64,000 nucleotides of DNA from a virus (IMGVR_UViG_2974549561_000001:1-64000), one strand, 5' to 3'; numbered from the stretch's first letter, positions 35,950-48,798 are shown. Translations and numbers: made by a program. Notes: generated by a model not told the origin, from the sequence alone.

Positions 35950-37869
35950 ATGGAACAGTTCAATATCAATAAAGGGGTGACGATCAAGCCTGGGCTTGAC
36001 GTGCTTCCCCCGCCAGTGACTGATGATGAATATCGCGCATTAATGGCCGGTGAGGACCGCTATCTGATGACGGAATCCAACACCCTGGAGGAAATCGAGG
36101 CTACGTTCTTCTATGACACGCCGATCCACTGGTGTGCTACGGATTTACTGGAGGCGATTAGTTCTACTCGTTTGCAGTTACACCGGACCATGCAGGCATT
36201 TGTCCGGGCATTGAACCAGAAGCTGAATGGTACCGGAATCTCTGCGGGGAGTGATAAAACGGGGGATGTGGCCCAGAGCGGCGCGCGCGCGATCGGCGGC
36301 GCTGAAATTGGCCGGGCACGTAACGTTAACGGGCTGCCGGTCTTGCCAGCCATTATTCCGCTCAGTGATGGTCAGACTATCAGCATTCTGTTTCATAGCC
36401 CGACAGCGGAAAACCGGATCACCAATAGCGATACGCTGGTTGCTTTCCAGTTCTTACTGAATAAAAAAGACGTTACTCACACCGTTGCTCCGATGAGTGG
36501 ACGTGATATGACGCTGGCGCAGGTCACCATGAAACTTGCCAACCTTGCAGAGAAAAACTCGGCAAAATTCCAGCGTGCGCAGAAGAAGAAAAAAGCCCTT
36601 GTTGATGAAATAACCCAACTACAGGCTGACAGTGACCAGAAAGAGGATGCCATGAGCGACCTCGCGGATCAGGTGGCAGCGGTAGAAGGGCAGAAGGCAG
36701 ATCTGGAGCAGAAAATTAACGCTGTTGCATCGGAAGCGGATTCTCTTTATGAAGAGAATGAGCGTTTGCAGACGGAGATTGATCAGCTCAATCGCACTGG
36801 TGGGCGCGATACCATTGCTCCAGCGGGGATGACTGGTGGGCACTCTCGCGCGCTGACGGATCGCCTTGCCAGTATCAAAAATCGTATGCATATGAACGGG
36901 GAAGTGACGCTCAGTAATGGTGCATCAATGAAGCAATTCATTGAGGACGGCGAAGGGTATATCCAGTTAAGCGATTCGGATGGCAGCGTGTACATGATCA
37001 AGGCTAAATCCATACAGGGTGTGGACATGGCAGATGCGATCGGCAAGCTGTTTAAAGCCTATAAAGCGGGTAATGTATCGGAATACCTGGTCCAACCAGA
37101 AGAACATAAACCGGAAAACGTCGAACCTGAACCAGCGGAGGATACCGGTAGCTCTTCGCCTGAACCAGAAGTCTCTGTAGGTGCATATCGATATGCCCTG
37201 CAAATGCGTCCGGCGGCCCCTGGCGCAATACCTGAAGGTAACAAAGCAATTCTGCCGCGCCCTGATGAAGGTGACCCGTATTATGAATATGCACGCTACG
37301 GCATTGCTACTTACGATACCCCGCTTTCTGATCAGCAAATGAGTGAGTACGACCTGAAGTTATTGCCTCACGAGGATTCTTTCGACTTCCTGGCGAAGAC
37401 ACTTACTAATGGTCCGTTTGGCAAATATGCACAAAAAGCTCTGGAGCTGGCCACCAGCTCACCAGACGAGTTCCGCGTAATGCTGAAAACTCAGTTTCAA
37501 AAAACTTTCCCCAATATTGCGTTTCCGGGGGGCGCTGGCACCGAGAAAATGGTGCAGAGCATGATCAATGCATTGCAGGCCGAAGTCGGTGAGATTACTC
37601 AGCCAGAACCTGCCCCGGCACAGCCTGATGAAACGGTTAGCGAAGCAGATGCAGCGGCTAATAAAGCCATTGAATATCTCAATAACGTGATGGATATGCA
37701 AAGCACTGACATGGCGGAGATCCGTAACGCCCGGGGTAATGTCCGGGAAGCGATTGCAGCCCTTCAGGCTGCCGGGCGTTTTGAGGAAAACGAAGAGCTA
37801 GTTAATGGCGCTGCTCGCCACCTGGCTGATCTGCTGGTAGCAATCCAGAAAGCGGGGGTAGCGGCATGA
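35950..37869 (+). CDS. darA: DarA antirestriction head protein precursor
   Basis: 639 aa, matching P1 DarA length; position in Dar operon. Confidence 0.7.
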   Translation: MEQFNINKGVTIKPGLDVLPPPVTDDEYRALMAGEDRYLMTESNTLEEIEATFFYDTPIHWCATDLLEAISSTRLQLHRTMQAFVRALNQKLNGTGISAGSDKTGDVAQSGARAIGGAEIGRARNVNGLPVLPAIIPLSDGQTISILFHSPTAENRITNSDTLVAFQFLLNKKDVTHTVAPMSGRDMTLAQVTMKLANLAEKNSAKFQRAQKKKKALVDEITQLQADSDQKEDAMSDLADQVAAVEGQKADLEQKINAVASEADSLYEENERLQTEIDQLNRTGGRDTIAPAGMTGGHSRALTDRLASIKNRMHMNGEVTLSNGASMKQFIEDGEGYIQLSDSDGSVYMIKAKSIQGVDMADAIGKLFKAYKAGNVSEYLVQPEEHKPENVEPEPAEDTGSSSPEPEVSVGAYRYALQMRPAAPGAIPEGNKAILPRPDEGDPYYEYARYGIATYDTPLSDQQMSEYDLKLLPHEDSFDFLAKTLTNGPFGKYAQKALELATSSPDEFRVMLKTQFQKTFPNIAFPGGAGTEKMVQSMINALQAEVGEITQPEPAPAQPDETVSEADAAANKAIEYLNNVMDMQSTDMAEIRNARGNVREAIAALQAAGRFEENEELVNGAARHLADLLVAIQKAGVAA

Positions 37870-38231
37870 CACTATCAGCTATTGAGTTAATGGATCTCAG
37901 CGATAAGTTGGATGCTCTGATGTCCAAAGCGGCTACCGCGCGTGGCATGGAGTTGCTGGATATCAGCGATGAAATTGACCAGATCATGCAACAGATGGGG
38001 TACGGTGTGTCCGGCGGCAGTAGTGGCGAGGAAAAACAACCTTCGGTACATGATGGCGTGCCAAAACTGGTTGCTGATTTCCTGGCTGATAAATTCGTCG
38101 ATCAGAGCACCGATGCATTTATCGGTACCTTGCAGGATTTGAGTCAATATGTTGGCACATACATCGACCTGGACCAGGTTAAACAGCACACGGCGGCATG
38201 GATAGCCGCCAACATTAAAGAGGCAGCGTGA
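37866..38231 (+). CDS. ddrA: DdrA
   Basis: 121 aa, ATGA overlap with darA. Confidence 0.55.
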   Translation: MTLSAIELMDLSDKLDALMSKAATARGMELLDISDEIDQIMQQMGYGVSGGSSGEEKQPSVHDGVPKLVADFLADKFVDQSTDAFIGTLQDLSQYVGTYIDLDQVKQHTAAWIAANIKEAA

Positions 38232-39569
38232 CATCCTCCACGCCCTTCGGGGTGTGGATTCCTGCTATGTTCAGGCTGTCGCCTGAATCATTTCGGAGGG
38301 TTCCTGCTTCAACGGGCGGTCTGACTGCACCATCCCTCCACAGGCAAGCACGGCGTGCCCCGCCGCTAAAATGTTACGAGCGCCGTTTACATCGGCGTTC
38401 GCTGTATATCCACAATCCCGACACACGAATTTACTTTGTGACAGGCGGTTTTCTTTCGCTGTATGGCCACAGCACGCGCAACGCTGGCTTGTGTACGCTG
38501 GCGGCACTGCCAGTACCTGACCGCCACGCCAGAGCTGCTTGTACTCAAGCTGGCGGCGCATTTCATACCAGCCCTGATCCAGTATCGAACGGTTTAAACC
38601 TGATTTTGCCCGGACATTGCGCCCCGGCTGACTTATCGTACCCGCCGCTGACTTTGACATGTATTTAACCTTCAAATCCTCAATGACAATCATTGCGTGG
38701 TTTTTGCTGATGATCGTTGTGATTTTATGAAGGTAGTCTCTGCGGATGTTTGCGATACGAAAATGCAGTCGCTGTATTTTGCGTTTCTGCATCTGCCAGT
38801 TGTTGCTGAATCTGACCTTGCGGCTTAACTGTCGCTGAAGTCTCGCCAGCTTCTTCTGGTTTTTCTGAAAACTATTTACAGGTTCAAAGACTGTGCCATC
38901 TGACAGCGTGGCGAGTTTAGCCACGCCAGCATCCAGTCCGACCATTGATGCTGAAGGGTGAACAGGAGTGGATACCTCTCTTTCTGTCTGAATACTGATG
39001 TACCACTTACCGCAGGACTGGCTGACAGTGACATTTTTCACAACACCCGTGACCTGACGGCTATTCCGGTAGCGCATCCAGCCAAGTTTCGGCAGAAAAA
39101 TACGGCTGTATTCCTGATCGAGCTTAACGCCCTGCGGGTAGCGGAATGCATCATTCTGTCCCCGCTTTTTGAATCGGGGAAAAGCAGCCCGATTCTGGAA
39201 GAAGTTTTTGTAAGCCCGCTCAAGGTCTTTCAGTGACTGTTGCAATGGCTGTGAGGGAGAATCTTTAAGCCATTCGGTTTCAGTGTCTTTTTTCCACTCA
39301 ACCAACCAGGAAGCCATTTTCGTGTAAGGGATGTATTTTTTACCGGCCTCATGATTCTCATTCTGAAGCGCCAGAGCACGATTGAAAACGAAACGACATG
39401 CGCCTGCGAAGCGCCTCATTTCACGCTCCTGTTGACCATCTGGTCTTAATCGGAATTTGAATGACACCTGTTGTTTCATGTCACTATTTTAAGCAAAAAT
39501 AGCCGGGAGGAAAACTGTGCCTTATATCCCCACTATGAGGCGCGTGGGGAGCGGCACATTGGATAAGGC
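38232..39569 (-). mobile_element. IS200/IS605-family tnpB-only insertion element
   Basis: single TnpB ORF, no tnpA; subterminal hairpins at both ends; TTAC next to the left end (minus-strand reading); occupies the ddrA-ddrB junction. Confidence 0.7.
38271..39479 (-). CDS. tnpB: TnpB (OrfB) RNA-guided nuclease family
   Basis: 402 aa; N-terminal OrfB_IS605 region and C-terminal zinc finger CACCGH...CRDCG with RuvC-like segment. Confidence 0.85.
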
Positions 39570-39578
39570 GTAACAGGG

Positions 39579-42566
39579 ATGAGCTTAAGCGATCAGGTGG
39601 TTATGGCCACCAGCATAGAAACGCTGATCGAGCTGCTAAAGAACCTGCCCGATTACGGGCGGGTTTCGTATGTGGTGACAGCGAAGGGAGACGAGGTAAA
39701 AACGGCGTTTGATATCGTCGATGCCTCAGCTCTTTTGGTATCCAATACTCTGGATGGGAAAATTAATCCAGACTATCCCCAGGAACTTCAGCCGCGCGAC
39801 CGGACCCGCGCATCCAGCCTTCTTCAGGTCAACCAGATATCCAAGGATTTGCGTCCTGCCCAGCTTACCGATTCCGGTTTATCCAGCCATGGCGCGCCGA
39901 TAATTGGTGAGGACAATGCCGTTGAGTCAGGTAATGGGCGGACCATGGGGATCATCAAAGCCTATCAGGACGGCAATGCGGATCGGTATCGTGAGTACCT
40001 GATTGAACATGCGACCGAATTCGGCATACGACCTGAAAAGGTTGAATCAATGACGGCTCCGGTACTGGTGCGCCGCCGGTTAACTAAGGTTGACCGCGTT
40101 CAGTTTGCCAAGGACTCAAATATTTCTGATCTTCAGGAAATGGCAGCCAGTGAAAAGGCTTTTGTTGATGCCGACAGCATAACACCGGCGATGATGGCGC
40201 TTTTTAACCCGTCAGAAAGCGGAGATCTGCTTAGCCGCAGTAATGACGCGTTTATTCGCGGATTTATGACGCAAGTTGGTGCCACACAGGCGGCTGGCCT
40301 TGTAACTGAAGATGGGCGACCAACACGGCAACTTGTAGACCGTATACAAAACGCGATCTTTGCCAAGGCATATAAGGATGCGCGCCTGGTAAGAATGGTT
40401 GCAGAAGAACCTGATCCGGATATGCGTAATGTTCTGACGGCGCTTAATGCGGCAGCCAATGATTTTGTCCAGATGCAGGCTTTATCAGGAGAAGCGCACA
40501 AGCAGGCTGTGACAACTATTGTTGATGGTATTGAGACAGCGGATAGTCTCGATAAAAAGGCGCTGGCGGCATTGAAAGATGCGGTAGACCTGGTAAGGCA
40601 ATCGAAGGAGTCAGGCCAACATATTACCGATGTTATTGCTCAGGGGGATATGTTCAGCGAAACAGCCCCGGAAGTGAAAGCTCTCGCGTTGTTCATCGTC
40701 GCGAATAACCGTAGCGCGAAGCGTATGGCCACCGCCTTTAAATTGATGGCTCAACGTATCAATGATGAGTTACAGCACCAGGGCCAGGCGCTGGGGGATA
40801 TGTTTGGCGGTGGTGATGTGTCGTTACAGGATATCCTTCGCCAGGTGTCTCAGGAACTGGAAAACGAAGGCATGCAAGGGATATCCGGCGGTCTTTTCGA
40901 GTCCGTTTCCGGCGGTAGTTACAACGGTGTTGCTCCATATACCAGTTTGCTATTACATCGGGCATCCGGCATCAAAGACATTATTCATCTGATCAGGCTG
41001 CTTTCCCGTACAGATCCCCAGGATGAACAGCTTGTACAAGTGCTTGCGCATTTTGTTCGAATGCCTGTTGCCGACGTGAATAAATGGTGCCGATTATTCG
41101 GTATCAGCAATTCGTTACTTCGCGGATTGTTAAATCACGCATCCTCCCTTGGGCGCGACGGCTTTGATGAGATAGCGCAGGCGATAAAAAACGGAGATAT
41201 GCCACCAGCTATTGACTGGTTTTCCATTCGCCCAACCAGGGTGAAAGCATTCCTTAGCGCGGCGCATTCGGCATCACCATTGGCAGAAATGATTCAGAGG
41301 TTGTCGCTCATATTCACAGACCATACCGCGTTGGGTGATCTGACTCTGGACGAGATGAAAGAAGCCTCCATTCAGTGGGCCGATCAACAAAATGAGGTTA
41401 ACTCAGACTTCTTGCCAGCATTCAGGAAGGCCGTTAGTAAAGCGGATGATGCCCGTGGAATTCTGAAGGCATTTAAGGCATTGCAAAGTCGGGTTAATAA
41501 ACATGTCGGTGATATCGATGGGGTAACGGCGGAAGGCAGGGATATCCTTAAAGAGCACGGCATAACGCCAGAGTTTATTGATGAGATCAGGACGGATATG
41601 CAGCGTGAGGTCGTATCGTCCCTGCAAATCGTAGCCAGAGCGTTGGCGGATGCTAATCCGAAGAGTGCGGCCATTGTTAACCGGGTTATTGGTGATATTG
41701 AAGCATCGGAGGGCATGGGGGCGCTGAAACTCTTCCTTTCGCGAGCGTTTAATCCTAACGGCAATATTCTCCCTGGCATTATTGGTGAGGCTAAAAAGTA
41801 TGTCAGTGAAGAAGAACTTGAGCAGCTTGACCAACTACTTAAGCGATTCTCATATAACCCGCAGATACGCTGGCAAATGAATCAGCGAAGTATGGGTTCG
41901 GTCCACGAGAAAGTGTTATCTGCCATGAACAGTGCGATCGCAAACTCATCCGTATCTGAAGAAAAAGCTCTTGAGTGGGCCGACTCTTTTATCACAGAAG
42001 AAGTGGAAGAAGCCCGCGCTGGACAGAATGGTGGGATAGACCTGCGCAAGGAACTTGCTGATATTTATCGCCTGACCGGCGGGAAAATATCGACCTTATC
42101 AAAGGTAGTTCACCACCAGGGAAGGGCATATGCAAATCTTAATGGTGTTGTTGCTGTCAATTTGAACGATGAAAATGCAAGTGCACTGTGGCACGAGCTG
42201 GGTCATCATCTTGAGTACAGTAACCCTGGTTTGTTAGAGAAAGCCCGGTCATTCCTGAAGGCCAATGTTGAAGGGGATAAGCCATCTTTCGTCAATATCG
42301 GTGGGCGTGGCAAGCCTGAATGGTGCTTCAGATCTCGATTGAGTAATATTTATATGGCGAAGGTATACCCGCCAGCCTCAGTAAGTAACACCGGGAAAAT
42401 TCGGCAGAAATCACCGACTATTTCCAAAACGTCAGCAACGGAAGTATTCTCTATGGCTCTTCAGTTGTATCATGACAAAGAGGCCGCTGCCGCATCACTG
42501 ATGAATGGTGACGGATTGCTGGAACTGTTATTAGGTGTGGCAAAGGAGCTAAATAATGCAGATTAA
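39579..42566 (+). CDS. ddrB: DdrB
   Basis: 995 aa following ddrA; assignment by synteny and size. Confidence 0.6.
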   Translation: MSLSDQVVMATSIETLIELLKNLPDYGRVSYVVTAKGDEVKTAFDIVDASALLVSNTLDGKINPDYPQELQPRDRTRASSLLQVNQISKDLRPAQLTDSGLSSHGAPIIGEDNAVESGNGRTMGIIKAYQDGNADRYREYLIEHATEFGIRPEKVESMTAPVLVRRRLTKVDRVQFAKDSNISDLQEMAASEKAFVDADSITPAMMALFNPSESGDLLSRSNDAFIRGFMTQVGATQAAGLVTEDGRPTRQLVDRIQNAIFAKAYKDARLVRMVAEEPDPDMRNVLTALNAAANDFVQMQALSGEAHKQAVTTIVDGIETADSLDKKALAALKDAVDLVRQSKESGQHITDVIAQGDMFSETAPEVKALALFIVANNRSAKRMATAFKLMAQRINDELQHQGQALGDMFGGGDVSLQDILRQVSQELENEGMQGISGGLFESVSGGSYNGVAPYTSLLLHRASGIKDIIHLIRLLSRTDPQDEQLVQVLAHFVRMPVADVNKWCRLFGISNSLLRGLLNHASSLGRDGFDEIAQAIKNGDMPPAIDWFSIRPTRVKAFLSAAHSASPLAEMIQRLSLIFTDHTALGDLTLDEMKEASIQWADQQNEVNSDFLPAFRKAVSKADDARGILKAFKALQSRVNKHVGDIDGVTAEGRDILKEHGITPEFIDEIRTDMQREVVSSLQIVARALADANPKSAAIVNRVIGDIEASEGMGALKLFLSRAFNPNGNILPGIIGEAKKYVSEEELEQLDQLLKRFSYNPQIRWQMNQRSMGSVHEKVLSAMNSAIANSSVSEEKALEWADSFITEEVEEARAGQNGGIDLRKELADIYRLTGGKISTLSKVVHHQGRAYANLNGVVAVNLNDENASALWHELGHHLEYSNPGLLEKARSFLKANVEGDKPSFVNIGGRGKPEWCFRSRLSNIYMAKVYPPASVSNTGKIRQKSPTISKTSATEVFSMALQLYHDKEAAAASLMNGDGLLELLLGVAKELNNAD

Positions 42567-46067: not shown

Positions 46068-48798
<2,731 letters not shown>

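Follow-up and report, generated by a model that had tools for sequence, protein, structure and literature searches.

A tnpB-only, probably stranded IS609-like insertion at the ddrA–ddrB junction of a P1-like phage-plasmid

The window analysed here is a 64,000-nucleotide stretch of viral DNA (IMGVR_UViG_2974549561_000001:1-64000) from a P1-like phage-plasmid in which about 1.3 kb of DNA encoding a TnpB protein separates ddrA from ddrB, two genes of the Dar operon. The locus raises the question of whether this segment belongs to the P1 backbone or is an inserted element and, in the latter case, to which family it belongs, how it arrived, and whether it still moves or acts. With good confidence we identify it as a non-autonomous, tnpB-only insertion of the IS200/IS605 family, nearest to IS609 of E. 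coli, which carries a predicted TnpB–omega RNA module and is probably stranded at its present site. The coordinates of its features are collected in Table 1.

Table 1. Features of the element and its flanks, in window coordinates.
Feature	Position	Strand	Basis
Whole element, 1335 bp; tnpB-only, IS609-like IS200/IS605 member	38228..39562	-	Alignment with P1 empty site and filled sites; length check
ddrA, 121 aa; protein unaltered by the insertion	37866..38231	+	
ddrB, 995 aa; intact, split from ddrA by the element	39579..42566	+	
tnpB, 402 aa; intact, RuvC D-E-D and CxxC...CxxC zinc ribbon conserved	38271..39479	-	
Left end, 83 nt	39480..39562	-	DNA fold; alignment with chromosomal IS609 left ends; left-end survey
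TTAT, target tetranucleotide 5' of left end and predicted TAM; flank, outside the element	39563..39566	-	Same bases in P1 empty site
Right-end subterminal hairpin (imperfect palindrome, IPR), one A.C mismatch	38237..38258	-	Fold; 28-sequence alignment
Right terminus TCAC (family consensus TCAA); plus strand completes last ddrA codon and stop TGA	38228..38231	-	
Predicted omega RNA scaffold (last ~150 nt of tnpB plus right end)	~38228..38374	-	Alignment; RNAalifold
Scaffold helices	38366-38350; 38344-38303; 38285-38271; 38258-38237; long-range 38374-38369/38236-38231	-	
RAGATH-18-like stem-loop within tnpB coding region	38301..38344	-	Rfam RF03064, sub-threshold
Predicted 16-nt guide GCTGCCTCTTTAATGT; flank, antisense of ddrA 3' end	38212..38227	-	Directly 3' of right end
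Target of predicted guide at empty P1 junction, CGCCTTAT-GCTGCCTCTTTAATGTTGGC			
Terminator-like hairpin and T-rich tail, starting exactly 16 nt beyond right end	38191..38211	-	Consensus scan

When phage records were searched by megablast, P1, P7, and most of their relatives matched only the flanks of the segment, in two pieces amounting to 49% of the query; RCS47 and vB_EcoM-813R1 matched from end to end, the element included. Since P1, P7, and most relatives match the flanks only, the segment is an insertion relative to P1. The borders were set by alignment with the P1 empty site, GAGGCAGC/ATAAGGCGTAAC (the slash marks the insertion point), and with the filled sites of RCS47 and 813R1. The insertion involves zero duplicated bases, and the element has no terminal inverted repeats, as befits the IS200/IS605 family. 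Excising it in silico restores the exact P1 site, GAGGCAGC/ATAAGG, and on the minus strand its junctions read ...GTTACGCCTTAT/CCAATGTGCC... and ...GGAGGATGTCAC/GCTGCCTCTTTAATG.... The window holds one copy. A reading made earlier from the sequence alone (below, the sequence-only reading) had placed an insertion at this junction, which the alignment with the P1 empty site bears out, and had given it a span of 38232-39569; the true span is 38228-39562, with one border shifted by 4 nt and the other by 7 nt.

The corrected borders alter the anatomy of the ddrA end. The element had been described as lying between the ddrA stop and the ddrB ribosome-binding site, but the insertion point is inside the ddrA end, between the second and third bases of the final sense codon, and the element itself supplies the stop. 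That is, the end of ddrA reads GCA GCA TAA in P1 and GCA GCG TGA in the window, where the G of GCG and the stop TGA (38229-38231) are right-end sequence of the element. Because this right end provides both the third base of the codon and a new stop, the DdrA protein is unaltered. The original P1 stop, TAA, is still found on the far side of the element, within the plus-strand ATAA at 39563-39566.

The tnpB gene is antisense to darA, ddrA, and ddrB, as had been proposed; the flanking plus-strand reading frames encode DarA (DarA_N/DarA_C), DdrA, and DdrB (ddrB-ParB domain). The TnpB protein has the Pfam domains HTH_OrfB_IS605 (PF12323), OrfB_IS605 (PF01385), and Cas12f1-like_TNB (PF07282), all above their gathering scores, and it matches the NCBIfam model guided_TnpB with 383.8 bits against a cut-off of 100. 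A phmmer search of PDB sequences aligned residues 5-377 with ISDra2 TnpB (8EXA/8BF8/8H1J, E = 1.4e-50), and there is full-length protein homology to ISDra2 TnpB, whose complex with omega RNA has solved structures (8EXA, 8H1J). The catalytic Asp (VGLDAGV), Glu (VIEDLK), and Asp (NADVNGA) and both CxxC pairs of the zinc ribbon align. The element thus encodes a TnpB (OrfB) with a RuvC-like domain and a zinc ribbon, and the description of a 402-residue protein with these two features holds on all three counts of Pfam, NCBIfam, and the ISDra2 alignment. An RNA-guided nuclease activity is predicted. No tnpA lies between the left end and tnpB, and a tblastn search with IS609 TnpA as query found none that is convincing anywhere in the 64-kb window. 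One match at 48319-48450 (36% over 44 aa, E = 0.001) lies antisense inside a 569-aa reading frame and was dismissed as chance. As no Y1 (HUH) transposase TnpA is encoded in cis, the element is non-autonomous, with an organisation of the IS1341 type.

Matches to the element are found in 5,025 of 5,426 complete E. coli genomes. The typical chromosomal match, in a copy annotated insQ or TnpB, has about 94% identity and extends from 16 nt inside the reading frame to the right terminus, and the segment from tnpB to the right end is 92.9–94.3% identical in DNA sequence to E. coli/Escherichia chromosomal copies flanked by TTAT...TCAA. In three such copies, at the loci ydcL/ydcO, ybcM/yedK, and gltX/yfeD, a divergent tnpA with a pseudogene annotation stands between the left end and tnpB, and the right end follows tnpB; TTAT precedes all three, and all three terminate in GGATGTCAA. 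The P1-borne copy and IS609 agree in the sequence and hairpin of the right end, in their TTAT target, and in having 10 nt between hairpin and terminus; the annotation of phage 813R1 names the P1-borne copy IS609. This copy differs from the chromosomal copies as follows. They carry tnpA between the left end and tnpB, and they end in TCAA rather than TCAC. Differences are also seen in the left end and in the opening 16 nt of the reading frame, the N-terminus of TnpB being MKQQVSFKF in the window and V/MKRLQAFKF in chromosomal IS609.

The tnpB-only layout is also found in Citrobacter amalonaticus, in Kluyvera cryocrescens, and on IncI2 plasmids (pM-132-4972), at unrelated sites, which argues for a genuine mobile lineage and not a local deletion. 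Either TTAT or TTAC flanks these relatives, their terminus is TCAA, and their parts come in the same order as in the window element: after a left end of about 80 nt comes the conserved motif TTTAAAAT, some 10 nt ahead of the ATG, and tnpB is followed by a right end of about 43 nt. They keep a canonical left end, with GTAAAA or GTAAAG before a CCCCGTCC-TTCA-GGGCGGGG hairpin, and the terminus TCAA, whereas the P1-borne copy has neither. A simple tnpA-deletion derivative of chromosomal IS609 was considered and rejected, as the left end, the TnpB N-terminus, and the spacer from left end to ATG match the tnpB-only lineage. Judged by its TnpB domains, its ends, and its homology to IS609, the element belongs with E. 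coli IS609 as a tnpB-only relative, and the assignment to a tnpB-only IS200/IS605 element made in the sequence-only reading is upheld on the same evidence.

What the ends can do is best judged against IS608 of Helicobacter pylori, in which guide tetranucleotides located 5' of the two hairpins recognise the cleavage tetranucleotides by base pairing (AAAG recognises TTAC) and the foot of the right hairpin is followed, at a distance of 10 nt on its 3' side, by the cleavage site TCAA (PMC3201880). The element is like IS608 in its subterminal imperfect palindromes, in making no target duplication, and in inserting 3' of a tetranucleotide; it differs in its TTAT target, in having no tnpA, and in the missing left guide tetranucleotide. 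Both the right-end geometry and the matching of guide to target in IS608 are paralleled in the IS609-type family, where canonical relatives pair AAAA with a TTAT target and AAAG with a TTAC target. Ahead of the left hairpin, GTAAAA is present in the elements that follow TTAT and GTAAAG in four of the six that follow TTAC. Among independent copies, the left end directly follows TTAT in the window and at 13 other distinct sites and TTAC at 6; the TTAT count is of 14 records, with L004 and L009 representing a single E. coli locus, plus an IncI2 plasmid. For the window, TTAC had been reported to abut the left end, but TTAT occupies that position (39566-39563), and TTAC is found 7 nt farther out (39573-39570), as ordinary flank that P1 has too; its presence there is coincidental.

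At the left end of the window copy, GC-TCCCC (GC-TCCCCAC) stands where relatives have their guide tetranucleotide, and no AAAA precedes the hairpin, so that the complementarity to the target called for by the IS608 rule is lacking. The left hairpin is shifted and has a larger loop than in the canonical family left end. DNA folding (z = -2.05) places it at 39527-39550, with arms 39550-39544/39533-39527 and an outer stem 39558-39553/39521-39516; a hairpin had rightly been seen at this end, although the position given for it, 39536-39560, overlaps the folded one only in part. The right-end fold is the more stable, with z = -3.51, and its hairpin covaries across the 28 sequences aligned (see below). 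This hairpin had likewise been recognised, at 38238-38257, one base short on either side. Its loop is inverted relative to the RCS47-type allele described below. The distance from hairpin foot to terminus is 10 nt, as in IS608, and across the family GAAT or GGAT precedes the right hairpin. All 27 of 27 relatives end GGAGGATGTCAA, with unrelated flanks beyond, which fixes the family terminus. The ten P1-borne copies, the window included, end GTCAC, with TCAC in place of the family cleavage tetranucleotide TCAA, and this TCAC mismatches the GAAT guide. From the alignment, we read TCAC as a point change in a family member and not as an argument against membership of IS200/IS605.

How the element is distributed among P1-like plasmids bears on its mobility. 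Complete E. coli genomes yielded 64 records of the filled left-end/ddrB junction and 399 of the uninterrupted junction, and about 14% are thus carriers. Ten P1-borne copies were compared: those of the window, p1_025985, RCS47, 813R1, two Salmonella plasmids, one E. albertii plasmid, and three more E. coli plasmids. All ten agree exactly in their junctions, and they have in common the TCAC terminus and the aberrant left end. A search with the first 33 nt of the left-end variant found them only in plasmids of P1-like size, and every examined copy with this variant sits between ddrB and ddrA. Two alleles can be told apart among the copies, a window type and an RCS47 type; they are 96.2% identical over the element and 98.3–98.7% identical in the flanks. 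The differences come in blocks alternately matching chromosomal IS609 copies, a pattern that suggests gene conversion with other IS609 copies. Two independent insertions, one for each allele, were ruled out, since both alleles share the junctions, the terminus, and the aberrant left end. The tnpB alleles differ at 38 codons, 22 synonymously and 16 nonsynonymously. The gene is intact in eight of the ten copies, and the remaining two share a frameshift; given a dN/dS that is only moderately low and these two frameshifted copies, TnpB may be drifting.

The shared junctions and aberrant ends point to one old insertion that is probably immobile now. By analogy with the rules established for IS608, TnpA would be expected to act poorly on either end. 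Three features make it probable that the copy is stranded: the window has no tnpA, the left guide tetranucleotide has been lost, and the right site is TCAC instead of TCAA. The insertion as such is already known, both at the level of annotation (insQ between DdrA and DdrB in RCS47) and in the literature, and it is mechanistically ordinary. Venturini et al. (2019; PMC6906374) reported IS609 in the antirestriction region of the P1-like plasmids pJIE250-3 and pSvP1, the pJIE250-3 copy being 1340 bp with the cleavage sites TTAT (left) and TCAA. The TCAA right site of pJIE250-3, which is outside the ten copies compared here, contrasts with TCAC in all of those. Our literature search found no paper giving a functional treatment of the TnpB of P1-like elements.

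We next consider the RNA that TnpB would use. From bacterial genomes, 51 related loci with protein identities of 28–92% were collected, and the last 220 nt up to the right terminus were aligned for 27 relatives (61–92% identity) and the window. RNAalifold returned a multi-helix structure for these 28 sequences. In it, 97% of the cells are paired, against 42–53% when the partners are slid by 1–3 columns, and 11 pairs show compensatory change, against 2–6 in the slid controls; none of 500 shuffles reached the observed values of pairing and covariation. The fold of the window sequence alone (38228-38440) is modestly more stable than its shuffles (z = -2.5). Some of the covariation comes from the right-end hairpin, a structure that TnpA requires at the DNA level as well. 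Of the covarying helices, however, those at 38366-38350 and 38344-38303 lie within the tnpB reading frame, and that at 38285-38271 includes the stop codon. The presence of several covarying helices inside the frame argues for constraint beyond the DNA hairpin of the transposase. The tnpB 3' end and the right end form a conserved structure, running up to the right-end boundary, that is consistent with a predicted omega RNA. The sequence-only reading had located the omega RNA in just this part of the minus strand, and the covarying structure at ~38374-38228 agrees with it.

A search with Rfam covariance models, which had been suggested as a check, gave a match to RF03064 (RAGATH-18) at 38301-38344. 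With 28.1 bits (E = 0.014) this match stays under the gathering score, 44.9; the helix concerned is the one in alignment columns 105-147. Over 37800-40000, even a permissive threshold brought up neither IS605-orfB nor any other guide-RNA family besides this sub-threshold match. RAGATH-18 RNAs are the guide RNAs (reRNAs) of IS607 TnpBs (PMC11061315). Any likeness of the scaffold to them lies in this sub-threshold stem-loop match; the IS607 RNA is wholly downstream of tnpB, whereas the scaffold in the window overlaps the coding region.

In that overlap with the tnpB 3' end and right end, the scaffold is like that of ISDra2, and so would be the derivation of its guide from the 3' flank. TnpB systems take as guide the sequence that directly adjoins the right end on its 3' side; the TAM of ISDra2 is TTGAT. 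Here the predicted TAM is TTAT, and the omega RNA sequences of the two elements are unrelated at the Rfam level. The predicted guide is the antisense of the ddrA 3' end. The P1 empty site carries TTAT+GCTGCCTCTTTAATGT, that is, TAM and guide together rebuild the empty donor site, at the level of sequence, and not the filled one. The only match to TTAT plus guide in the window is the filled junction, in which TCAC stands in the TAM position. The terminator-like hairpin that begins where the guide ends is a possible 3' end of a read-out transcript; it may also be chance, four terminator-like sites having been found in the region against 2.9 expected.

As to the Dar operon, the gap between ddrA and ddrB is now filled by 1.3 kb of antisense element. 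The ddrB gene has the length of P1 ddrB (2988 bp by the coordinates of the P1 record) and differs from RCS47 ddrB by 30 synonymous and 6 nonsynonymous codons over 707 codons. A polar effect of the element on ddrB is possible, as had been suggested. A scan of the plus strand for intrinsic terminators yielded no strong site and a single weak one, at 38845-38860, and we therefore make no strong claim of intrinsic polarity. A ddrB promoter within the element was also considered. The one outward match, at 39461-39490 on the plus strand, is weak (9/12, with 2.0 expected by chance) and by eye is not conserved in the tnpB-only relatives; it was discarded. DdrB is one of the Dar proteins packaged in the P1 head (PMC12810830).

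Several other explanations of the locus deserve to be weighed. We give next to no credence to a conserved gene of the P1 backbone. Its sole support is the presence of the segment in several P1-like genomes. The sequence-only reading had named such a backbone gene as a finding that would refute it, but the complete E. coli genomes, with 399 sites empty and 64 filled, and the uninterrupted junction in P1 and P7 refute the backbone gene instead; the IS ends and the close chromosomal IS609 relatives also speak against it. It is very improbable, too, that TnpB has been domesticated into a nuclease-dead, RNA-guided repressor of the TldR type that regulates the Dar operon. The gene is inside the operon, and the guide would be complementary to the ddrA 3' end; but a full-length protein with an intact RuvC D-E-D triad and zinc ribbon does not fit a nuclease-dead TnpB, the filled site is without a TAM, and the architecture is that of a plain IS with ends.

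Continued mobility, with chromosomal IS609 TnpA acting in trans and the P1 copies stemming from repeated or ongoing transposition, strikes us as quite unlikely. A source of transposase would be at hand, since tnpA-bearing IS609 copies are present in about 93% of complete E. coli genomes; moreover, the tnpB-only lineage occupies different sites elsewhere, and the 10-nt spacing at the right end agrees with that of IS608 (PMC3201880). Yet the chromosomal tnpA copies are annotated as pseudogenes, both the missing AAAA guide at the left end and the mismatch of TCAC with the GAAT guide would hinder transposition, and all the P1-borne copies share their junctions, with the left-end variant confined to plasmids of P1-like size. 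A weightier possibility, although we put it below an even chance, is that the element is an inert relic, a neutral passenger whose TnpB and omega RNA are silent or inactive and which does no harm at a non-essential locus. It would account for the two degenerate ends, the lack of tnpA, the frameshift in two of ten copies, and the absence of the element from 86% of P1-like plasmids, and ddrB is indeed non-essential for P1 plaque formation (PMC10695390). It accounts less well for a TnpB that is intact, with all catalytic residues, in eight of ten copies and across two alleles differing at 38 codons, or for the preservation of the RNA scaffold.

For the stranded, tnpB-only IS609-like insertion that we favour, the following course of events is proposed. 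The element would have entered the ancestor of one P1-like phage-plasmid lineage a single time, by single-strand "peel and paste" transposition, 3' of the TTAT that overlaps the ddrA stop codon, and would later have been inherited or spread by recombination among the P1-like plasmids of E. coli, E. albertii, and Salmonella. If the omega RNA scaffold is expressed, transcription reading out into the flank would extend it by a guide antisense to the ddrA 3' end. The TnpB complex would then recognise TTAT+GCTGCCTCTTTAATGT, which is the unoccupied ddrA/ddrB junction of other P1-like genomes, and the element's own filled site would escape recognition by having TCAC in place of the TAM.

It is tempting to extend this proposal and to suggest that the module is a homing or exclusion device among P1-like phage-plasmids, a reading that follows from the sequence logic but that we consider unlikely. 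If it were true, a resident carrier could cut an incoming or co-replicating P1 relative at the uninterrupted, TTAT-adjacent junction that about 86% of P1-like genomes possess. The outcome would be either interference with the relative or its conversion to a carrier through repair from the filled copy, and the persistence of an element with crippled ends on diverged backbones in Escherichia and Salmonella would be explained.

The corrected anatomy of the locus shows that the right end of an IS200/IS605 element can rebuild a host stop codon, and the relatives of the element furnish a natural enterobacterial example of the IS608 guide/target rule, with AAAA for TTAT and AAAG for TTAC. The insertion may alter the supply of DdrB to the virion and, in that event, may matter to users of P1-like vectors. 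Should TnpB cut the empty P1 junction, P1-like phage-plasmids would be a tractable system for TnpB-driven homing and phage competition.

The copies of the element carried by P1-like phage-plasmids fall into two alleles, that of the window and that of RCS47. At 38246–38253 of the window, the right-end hairpin has a loop that is inverted between them, with CGAA for the window type and TTCG for the RCS47 type. The stem in the window carries one A·C mismatch. The inversion resembles the flip that a template switch produces in a quasi-palindrome. The alleles otherwise differ in blocks, at 38415–38426, 38505–38514, 38711–38812 and 39030–39445, and in every block the chromosomal IS609 copies match either the window or the RCS47 allele. 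This block pattern suggests gene conversion between chromosomal and plasmid-borne copies. Two RCS47-type copies, in phage vB_EcoM-813R1 and plasmid p1493-4, share a frameshift that cuts TnpB at residue 82, showing that tnpB decays in part of the P1-borne lineage.

At the end of ddrA, P1 has GCA TAA, versus GCG TGA in the window. The G and the TGA (38228–38231) are element sequence, contributed by the right terminus, and the length and sequence of DdrA are unaltered by the insertion. An alanine codon followed by a stop (GCT TGA) is also expected with the canonical TCAA terminus. The stop overlaps, as GTGA, the start of a predicted 146-aa ORF, so that reinitiation by ribosomes leaving ddrA could in principle occur.

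Inside ddrA, on the antisense strand, a terminator-like hairpin starts exactly 16 nt past the right end of the element, which is where the predicted 16-nt guide of the omega RNA would be expected to end. This position may be a coincidence, since four such terminator-like sites were found in the region versus 2.9 expected.

Features of the ddrA–tnpB region and of related elements
Feature	Sequence	Position or extent	Strand	Remarks
Terminator-like hairpin with T-rich tail	Window	38191–38211	−	Inside ddrA, antisense strand
Predicted 146-aa ORF	Window	38228–38668	+	Antisense to tnpB; GTG start
tnpA	L004–L006, chromosomal IS609 copies	2052–2477 of locus
Canonical tnpB-only IS609-like copy	L059, IncI2 plasmid pM-132-4972	2460–3802		TTAT flank; TCAA end
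IS609-like tnpB	Filamentous phage If1, U02303.1/NC_001954.1	647 bp		'ORF348'
IS609-like tnpB	Morganella phage IME1369_01, KY653118.1	Near full length		Annotated as a virulence protein
IS609-like tnpB	Aeromonas phage AP1, MT713136.1	291 bp

A tnpB-only IS609-like copy is also found in IncI2 conjugative plasmids, between a hok/gef gene and repA. The 80–90% identity band holds 53 plasmid records, and the many of about 60 kb are presumably of the IncI2 type. IS609-like tnpB sequence at 90–94% identity occurs, too, in phages If1, IME1369_01 and AP1.

In the three chromosomal copies the tnpA reading frame has no stop codon where its annotation ends and stays open across the left end; PGAP labels all three as incomplete pseudogenes, and the BL21 tnpA has an internal stop.

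Across the left-end flanks of the enterobacterial IS609-like family (the related loci L008–L039, the chromosomal copies L004–L006 and the IncI2 copy L059), the target tetranucleotide and the one 5′ of the left hairpin vary together. TTAT is paired with AAAA, and TTAC with AAAG in four of six cases; AAAG precedes the hairpin in none of the TTAT-flanked elements in this set. The covariation in this family repeats, in a natural setting, the guide/target rule of IS608.
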